This document shows positions 201 through 434 of a DNA stretch of 8,169 nt, piece by piece (within the stretch, counting starts at the first letter, position 1; each line of letters starts with the position of its first letter). The notes beneath the pieces are model-generated. The model did no database searches, was not told where the DNA came from, and saw only the letters and a list, made by a program, of their open reading frames with translations. The position numbers and the translations under genes were made by a program. Source of the stretch: a virus (Monodnaviria; Loebvirae; Hofneiviricota; Faserviricetes; Tubulavirales; Inoviridae); IMG/VR virus record IMGVR_UViG_2541047720_000001, positions 1 to 8,169 of that record, one strand, 5' to 3'.

Positions 201-434
201 TCATTGGTCACAGACCGTAATCCACTGGCCCAGGACGTCTTTCAGGCAATGTTGGCATAAATCCAGTTTTAAGCGATTACTGTCACCAAAAATTGAACCG
301 TATCCAGCTAAGTGATTAACAGACAGAAACTCATTGAACTCAATGTCATCTACCACCGTCTTCGCATGGCGACCACAGCGATCGCAGGTCTTCGCACATA
401 ACATTACAGTATCGCTGGATGTGAAAAATTGCAT
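201..434 (-). CDS. Hypothetical small Cys-rich protein (77 aa), possible zinc-ribbon; function unknown
   Basis: ORF with a strong Shine-Dalgarno (GAGGAG, about 6 nt before the ATG at 434). Cysteines at positions 13, 17, 20, 60 and 63 (CxxxCxxC ... CxxC). It sits between the intergenic hairpin and the left dif site, inside the element. Confidence 0.55.
   Translation of the reverse strand: MQFFTSSDTVMLCAKTCDRCGRHAKTVVDDIEFNEFLSVNHLAGYGSIFGDSNRLKLDLCQHCLKDVLGQWITVCDQ

Follow-up and report, generated by a model that had tools for sequence, protein, structure and literature searches.

The 77-aa open reading frame (ORF) at positions 201 to 434 (minus strand) is an accessory ("moron") gene at the cargo site of CUS-1/YpfΦ-type filamentous phages, between the morphogenesis genes and attP, and its product belongs, as a stand-alone protein, to a large and still unnamed zinc-finger family that is carried by inoviruses, tailed phages, plasmids, and transposons. 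The window, as the term is used here, is the whole stretch of 8,169 nucleotides that was analyzed. The full interpretation, which joins the accessory position and the family assignment to a proposed role of the protein as an antitoxin-like or counter-defence modulator, was given a probability of approximately 40%. The identity of the gene and its family are very probable, and the mechanism is put forward tentatively. The ORF had already been catalogued, and earlier literature had remarked on the gap in its functional annotation; the present analysis contributes its family, its fold class, its association with antitoxin domains, and the recognition of the window prophage as a deletion derivative. 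One of the terminal ORFs of YpfΦ and CUS-1 is thereby placed in a large zinc-finger family whose members repeatedly accompany antitoxin modules on many mobile elements, and attention is drawn to a domain for which neither Pfam nor NCBIfam offers a family model.

The minus-strand ORFs of the window comprise a filamentous-phage gene set that was identified by Pfam matches, including a C-terminal fragment of G2P, G5P, the Gp8 coat protein, the pilus-binding protein G3P, DUF5455, Zot, and secretin. The exact 28-nt dif site of E. coli (GGTGCGCATAATGTATATTATGTTAAAT on the minus strand) is located at positions 135 to 162, 38 nt past the stop codon of the 77-aa ORF. At the other prophage end, a partial dif (positions 6471 to 6484, minus strand; ACATTATGCGCACC), which was read from the sequence and compared with attP, consists of the XerC arm and part of the central region and represents the hybrid junction. 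The right flank of the window is formed by hipA/hipB. On the basis of the exact dif, the partial dif, the filamentous gene set, and the hipBA flank, the window therefore contains an inovirus of the CUS-1/YpfΦ type that is integrated at dif beside hipBA as an E. coli prophage. Its layout and host agree with those of the CUS-1/YpfΦ group in the review by Derbise and Carniel (PMC4266046). Within this dif-integrated CUS-1-type inovirus, the 77-aa ORF is situated in the interval from the secretin gene to the intact dif. All 8,169 bases of the window were 100% identical to two E. coli assemblies, and the same form of the prophage, with both of the deletions described below, was also present in more than 13 sequencing runs; the window is thus a naturally occurring sequence and not an assembly artefact. 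The hipA/hipB toxin-antitoxin locus of the host (window positions 6563 to 8169) directly adjoins the prophage, an adjacency that reflects the chromosomal position of dif and has no functional link to the prophage. Two other features of the prophage were observed. The Gly/Ser-rich linker of the G3P attachment protein is encoded by imperfect 30-nt repeats (window positions 3688 to 3816), and the annotated lengths of G3P vary among near-identical prophage copies (1221, 1245, and 1281 nt). A 100% identical copy of the 77-aa gene was found on a contig (JARKOR010000214.1) that had been binned into a metagenome-assembled genome (MAG) as "Candidatus Nanosynbacter", with near-identical copies of the other prophage genes upstream in unchanged order, and this copy is almost certainly a contamination of the MAG.

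When the window was aligned by BLAST to the tandem prophages of E. coli strain 16843, which are intact, the two were 100% identical apart from two deletions. The first, of 488 bp, has its junction at window position 751, where a C-terminally truncated secretin (gIV) is fused in frame to the 3' part of a 102-aa ORF that resembles YPO2280a; the resulting ORF extends from 552 to 1706 (minus strand). The second, of 1,494 bp, has a junction with a 13-nt overlap at positions 5584 to 5596 and took out the N-terminal two thirds of gII, a divergent 60-aa gene, another gene of 46 aa, and the greater part of a third one of 91 aa, leaving a 104-aa C-terminal ORF as the remnant of gII. The prophage in the window is a defective single-copy deletion derivative, in which the 77-aa gene stays intact while full-length gII and the C-terminus of secretin are missing. 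Intact relatives, 100% identical elsewhere, have the 77-aa ORF alongside a complete gII of 350 aa and the divergent regulator gene of 60 aa; the absence of gII from the window is therefore due to deletion, and the prophage is not a phage in which new genes have taken over the place of the replication module. When proteins are clustered at 90% identity, the cluster that holds the 102-aa protein (positions 3313 to 3621 in the strain 16843 tandem prophages) includes many entries of 130 to 250 aa that are named "Replication-associated protein G2P, partial", which suggests that more deletion or fusion variants linking the 102-aa ORF to gII exist in other strains.

The attL side of the window carries a 234-aa ORF (positions 5683 to 6387, plus strand), for which the annotation starts at the second Met and gives 230 aa; the C-terminal part of its product contains three hydrophobic segments. 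Beyond this ORF lies a GC-rich hairpin with A-run and T-run flanks (positions 6419 to 6450) that resembles a bidirectional terminator, with folding z-scores of -8.3 and -7.3. The loop of this hairpin (12 nt) exceeds the 8-nt limit of the terminator scan, and the element was assessed by folding. On the excised or tandem form, it separates two convergent genes. Such a form is represented by a circular record of 7,938 bp from Salmonella, which is this phage in its replicative form and in which the 77-aa gene is followed by attP (GGTGCGCATAATGTACGACTCGTTATGTTG), a strong terminator-like hairpin, a convergent Fic/Doc gene, and the 60-aa gene opposite gII. The convergence across attP and the shared bidirectional terminator that the preliminary description had predicted for the excised circle were thus seen directly, and the hairpin folds on both strands. 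The far side of attP in this circle (L080, 2138 to 2872) encodes a 244-aa Fic/Doc-family protein with no annotated antitoxin, and that of the neighboring tandem copy in strain 16843 (L001, 1621 to 2826) contains ORFs of 140, 91 (ECs_2282-type zinc-binding), and 159 aa, with the 159-aa ORF as the convergent partner across attP. The attP-far-side genes of YpfΦ and CUS-1 are other ORFs (PMC4266046). This cargo thus differs strongly among phages that are near-identical in their other parts.

The 77-aa gene and the 234-aa gene had been proposed to make up an accessory module of two genes in the place of gII and the origin, a proposal that came with a suggested check of their co-occurrence. Both genes are indeed intact in the window where gII is truncated, and on the circle they would be convergent across attP with a terminator in common. 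However, gII and the 77-aa gene occur together in the intact copies, and the loss of gII is a separate deletion event of 1,494 bp with its own 13-nt junction overlap. Furthermore, the 77-aa gene was present in 49 of 5,426 complete E. coli genomes, the 234-aa gene in 22 of these 49 and absent from the remaining 27, and the gene in the partner position varies. These results make the replacement module highly improbable. The 77-aa gene is the constant element, the far side of attP holds variable cargo, and the 234-aa gene is no obligate partner.

The 77-aa ORF starts with ATG at positions 434 to 432 and ends with TGA at 203 to 201. Its Shine-Dalgarno sequence GAGGAG (positions 440 to 445, minus strand) lies 5 nt upstream of the start codon and is kept in homologous cassettes, and a conserved 70-nt leader (positions 435 to 505, minus strand) extends from an upstream hairpin to the start codon. 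A promoter scan for the gene, including this leader, found no sigma-70 site. The near-consensus ribosome-binding site, the CxxxCxxC...CxxC pattern (Cys 13, 17, 20, 60, 63, and 75), and the placement of the ORF between the hairpin (506 to 550) and dif were all confirmed as first described. The window contains 65 ORFs of at least 30 aa, and the size of the 77-aa ORF is unremarkable on its own. It is considered a gene because it is conserved, not because of its length. Relative to homologues of 82% and 71% identity, dN/dS was 0.05-0.06 with saturated synonymous sites, and the exact protein was found on at least 1000 public contigs. The protein was at least 99% identical in all 49 carrier genomes, and the gene was present in 48 of 48 genomes whose Zot is at least 95% identical to that of the window; Zot has drifted to approximately 97% in half of these 48, and seven genomes with a more distant Zot (75-92%) lacked the gene. 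A chance or decaying ORF without function would be consistent with an annotation that never went beyond "hypothetical protein" and with the missing consensus promoter. It is contradicted by the dN/dS of approximately 0.05, by a family of more than 1,200 clusters with invariant residues, and by a confident structure model, and its probability is negligible.

The hairpin upstream of the gene (positions 506 to 550, minus strand; folding z -5.6) has 20-nt arms in the window and 21 pairs in the family alignment, and it forms the 5' boundary of a cassette that moves with the 77-aa gene. Homology of the window to unrelated contexts, including a plasmid-like contig, an IncF plasmid, and other inoviruses, begins at the outer hairpin edge or within approximately 10 nt of it and continues through the gene. 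Among eight aligned sequences, all 21 pairs were kept, and six of these had changes on both sides, compared with 2.4 ± 1.0 in shuffled alignments; six compensatory pairs were reached in 0 of 500 shuffles and in no slid control. These compensatory changes indicate that the hairpin structure is selected at the level of RNA or single-stranded DNA. Hairpin A of Ff phages, which acts as packaging signal and terminator, sits after gene IV. The hairpin of the 77-aa cassettes is similar in being long, stable, located on the coding (plus) strand, and placed directly after gIV (loci L018, L021, L025, L093, and L095), whereas the window hairpin precedes a gene instead of the replication origins and has no adjacent U-run. 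By its position after gIV, it may be a candidate terminator or a packaging-signal-like element. The hairpin was absent from more distant plasmid homologues. On plasmids or contigs of Klebsiella and Proteus, dif-like Xer sites were observed at distances of 1 kb to 7 kb from the family gene (L081, 6290 to 6317; L023, 1432 to 1459; L022, 16018 to 16045), and the plasmid copies that bear the hairpin may be remnants of inoviruses that had integrated at plasmid Xer sites.

In intact phages of the CUS-1 type, the gene order is secretin, 102-aa ORF, hairpin, 77-aa ORF, and attachment site. In YpfΦ and CUS-1, the two ORFs that occupy this site after the secretin gene are YPO2280a and YPO2281, which have "no predictable functions" (PMC4266046), and both are included in a 7.1-kb segment for which a nucleotide identity of 99% is stated (PMC4266046). 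From its position and this 99% nucleotide identity, we infer that the 77-aa ORF is the counterpart of YPO2281. At least four other inoviruses with diverged sequences carry homologues of the 77-aa protein, with identities between 82% and 54%, immediately past secretin; these loci are L018, L021 (Phytobacter), L025 and L095 (Klebsiella), L093, L094, and L097. The homologue in these phages adjoins dif or attP wherever the phage end is visible, and the 102-aa ORF is absent. The constancy of this location would also fit an accessory factor for XerCD recombination at attP/dif, with a role like that of XafT of TLCΦ: the family gene was closest to attP/dif in every inovirus examined, a Klebsiella plasmid copy is 1 kb from a dif-like site, and the integration of YpfΦ differs among lineages in a way that is unexplained (PMC4266046). 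However, closeness to attP is expected of whatever cargo is inserted at the end of the phage, and most family members reside outside inoviruses (approximately 48 of the 59 loci in viruses, and the majority of those in genomes). No match to DUF3653/XafT was detected in Pfam at E ≤ 0.1, and the recurrent partners of the family are antitoxin domains, not recombinases. A recombination factor is therefore improbable, and an accessory gene at the phage cargo site is the preferred reading of the location.

The 77-aa protein (8.7 kDa, pI 5.4) is acidic and matches PHROG 5435, to which no function is assigned, over its full length (residues 1 to 77, E = 4.5e-46). The first description had left the family unrecognized, and no significant match was obtained in Pfam (only a sub-threshold match to zf-FPG_IleRS, E = 0.004), in NCBIfam, or among the PADLOC anti-phage defence profiles; a tblastn search against 50,697 phage records also found no match. 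A word-indexed search yielded only 14 close clusters. An exhaustive HMMER search with a profile built from these 14 clusters retrieved 1,238 cluster representatives at E ≤ 1e-3, of which 611 remained at E ≤ 1e-10. Four cysteines in two CxxC pairs are the conserved putative zinc ligands: across 149 members, C20, C60, and C63 were invariant and C17 was conserved in 99%, with Ser in its place in the close homologue P0008, while C13 and C75 were not conserved. Residues conserved in at least 90% of the family are C17, D18, E35, G44, S47, G50, D51, D58, and Q61, and the signature CDRCG...E..EF.S......GYGS.FGDG......DLCQHC.K..LG.W. includes the near-invariant loop GYGSxFGDG. Two tandem copies of the domain were found in P0018, P0045, P0142, and P0145, and many longer members, many of them betaproteobacterial, have a short conserved motif, RFDPxRHGGEFP, just past the domain.

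Structure prediction, which had been suggested as a check, gave a confident AlphaFold model with a pLDDT of 88 from a 118-sequence alignment, compared with 64 from a 7-sequence alignment. In this model, C17 and C20 are on a knuckle hairpin, two longer strands are linked by the glycine-rich loop, and a helix starts at C60/C63. The predicted fold is, with confidence, a treble-clef-like zinc site around a beta-beta-alpha core, and a four-Cys zinc site is likely. Of the earlier proposal of a small zinc-ribbon protein, the zinc site is thus supported, and the ribbon is not: a ribbon requires both CxxC knuckles on beta-hairpins, and the second CxxC opens the helix in the model. An HNH or His-Me finger nuclease was rejected because the first strand of the beta-beta-alpha motif does not end in a conserved catalytic His, and the Ogr/Delta, TraR/DksA, and Mu Com regulators were rejected because their profiles in Pfam and NCBIfam did not match. 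Foldseek against BFVD returned nothing at E ≤ 1e-3, and the family profile produced only spurious C2H2 matches among PDB sequences.

The family recurs in the company of antitoxin domains. Among the 149 members, eight were fused to Xre_MbcA_ParS_C, two to DUF4926, and one to TacA1, with the zinc-finger domain on the N-terminal side of such fusions, and a second search found more ParS_C and DUF4926 fusions as well as one member that JGI names "antitoxin CcdA". A Klebsiella plasmid member had a weak match to the C-terminal part of CcdA. Approximately 5% of family members were fused or adjacent to PF09722, and the association thus concerns a minority of the family. A 78-aa stand-alone member overlaps a 69-aa ParS_C-only gene by 4 nt, two Hydrogenophaga members are directly downstream of an Xre-HTH+ParS_C gene, and in Pectobacterium the gene of one member converges on that of a ParS_C protein, next to OLD-TOPRIM and UvrD-helicase genes that form a Gabija-like locus. 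ParS_C was detected in 2 of 80 scanned neighbor ORFs of 57 genome loci by Pfam, and at most three adjacent cases were found by a local HMM. Pfam surveys of neighboring genes at these 57 genome loci and at 41 viral loci revealed no single conserved partner; other neighbors were mixed and included TniQ, transposases, plasmid genes, HicA, GNATs, Lar, DNA methylases, NADAR, and HNH, with Lar, DNA methylases, and NADAR found in viral and other mobile-element loci. Close homologues were located on small Proteus and Providencia plasmids and on Klebsiella IncF plasmids, and members on viral contigs were almost all short and stand-alone, amid other small ORFs. No RES or other cognate toxin gene was found beside the fused or adjacent homologues examined, and none for RES in the window.

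These associations raise the question of whether the 77-aa protein is itself half of a toxin-antitoxin pair, either with the 102-aa (YPO2280a-like) ORF, to which its gene is adjacent in CUS-1-type phages, or as a small toxin neutralized by ParS_C-type proteins, since the two Hydrogenophaga members occupy the usual toxin position after an Xre-HTH+ParS_C antitoxin. A pair with the 102-aa ORF is contradicted by the other inoviruses, where homologues directly follow gIV and the 102-aa ORF is missing, and by the window, where the 102-aa ORF is destroyed and the 77-aa gene is intact, an arrangement that is widespread. The gene also occurs alone in plasmids and tailed-phage contigs, and fusion to several unrelated antitoxin tails is ill suited to a single toxin. 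A role as one half of a pair is consequently very unlikely.

In the mechanism that we tentatively prefer, the zinc finger would be a zinc-stabilized module for protein interaction or dimerization, and the phage version, which has no tail, would work on its own to modulate host systems in an antitoxin-like or counter-defence manner and so favor persistence of the phage or the lysogen; the protein would not be needed for replication, assembly, or secretion. This preference is based on the several toxin-neutralizing partners of the domain, its acidic character, and its stand-alone occurrence in phages. The term antitoxin-like refers to domain association alone, and the 77-aa protein itself has no antitoxin tail. 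The N-terminal zinc domain of the antitoxin MqsA provides a precedent for a CxxC...CxxC domain that contacts protein and not DNA.

The main rival is a small DNA-binding transcriptional regulator that would repress or activate promoters of its own gene, the phage, or the host, perhaps by way of the upstream inverted repeat, with the zinc finger as operator-binding domain in place of the HTH or RHH domain. Small zinc-finger regulators are common in phages, and the domain sits in the N-terminal slot of ParS/MbcA, CcdA, and TacA antitoxin-like fusions, where canonical antitoxins bind DNA, which would suggest a regulator instead. In addition, the 21-bp inverted repeat moves with the gene. On the other hand, the mean net charge of the domain is -3.8, with 94% of the 149 members negative and only 1% at +2 or more, and this acidity favors protein binding over DNA binding. 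The compensatory changes in the repeat reflect selection on a folded strand and not on a fixed operator, the repeat is missing from distant plasmid homologues, and no Ogr/Delta, TraR/DksA, Com, or HTH model matched. A regulator is therefore unlikely, although less so than the other alternatives to the protein-interaction module. A more far-reaching version of the preferred reading, that the 77-aa protein is the minimal form of a new promiscuous zinc-finger module that directly inhibits a host toxin or an abortive-infection effector, as part of an anti-defence or anti-addiction family, is doubtful at present. If true, such an inhibitor would be deployed by mobile elements that include a virulence-associated prophage of E. 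coli K1/UPEC and of the plague bacillus.

Several known systems resemble the 77-aa gene in part. Xre/MbcA/ParS antitoxins of RES-toxin systems combine an HTH with PF09722, and in the PF09722-bearing members of the family the zinc finger takes the slot of the Xre-like HTH. However, the 77-aa protein has no PF09722, its domain is acidic, and no RES toxin accompanies the homologues examined. Inoviruses often carry toxin-antitoxin and host-interaction genes (PMC6813254); compared with such toxin-antitoxin modules, the 77-aa protein has neither a toxin partner nor a recognized antitoxin domain. The prophages with YPO2281/YPO2280a, YpfΦ of Yersinia pestis and CUS-1 of E. coli K1, have the same dif-integrated layout with two small ORFs from the secretin gene to dif (attR), except that in the window the first of the two is cut by deletion. 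Both phages modestly raise the in vivo fitness of Y. pestis and E. coli K1 (PMC4266046). The preliminary description had used the origin region of Ff phages as its point of comparison, and the cargo site of CTXΦ with ctxAB fits better (PMC4266046). Although the 77-aa gene is unrelated to ctxAB, the CTXΦ site likewise holds accessory genes after the morphogenesis and secretion genes, beside the attachment site, and these genes are dispensable for virions (PMC4266046).
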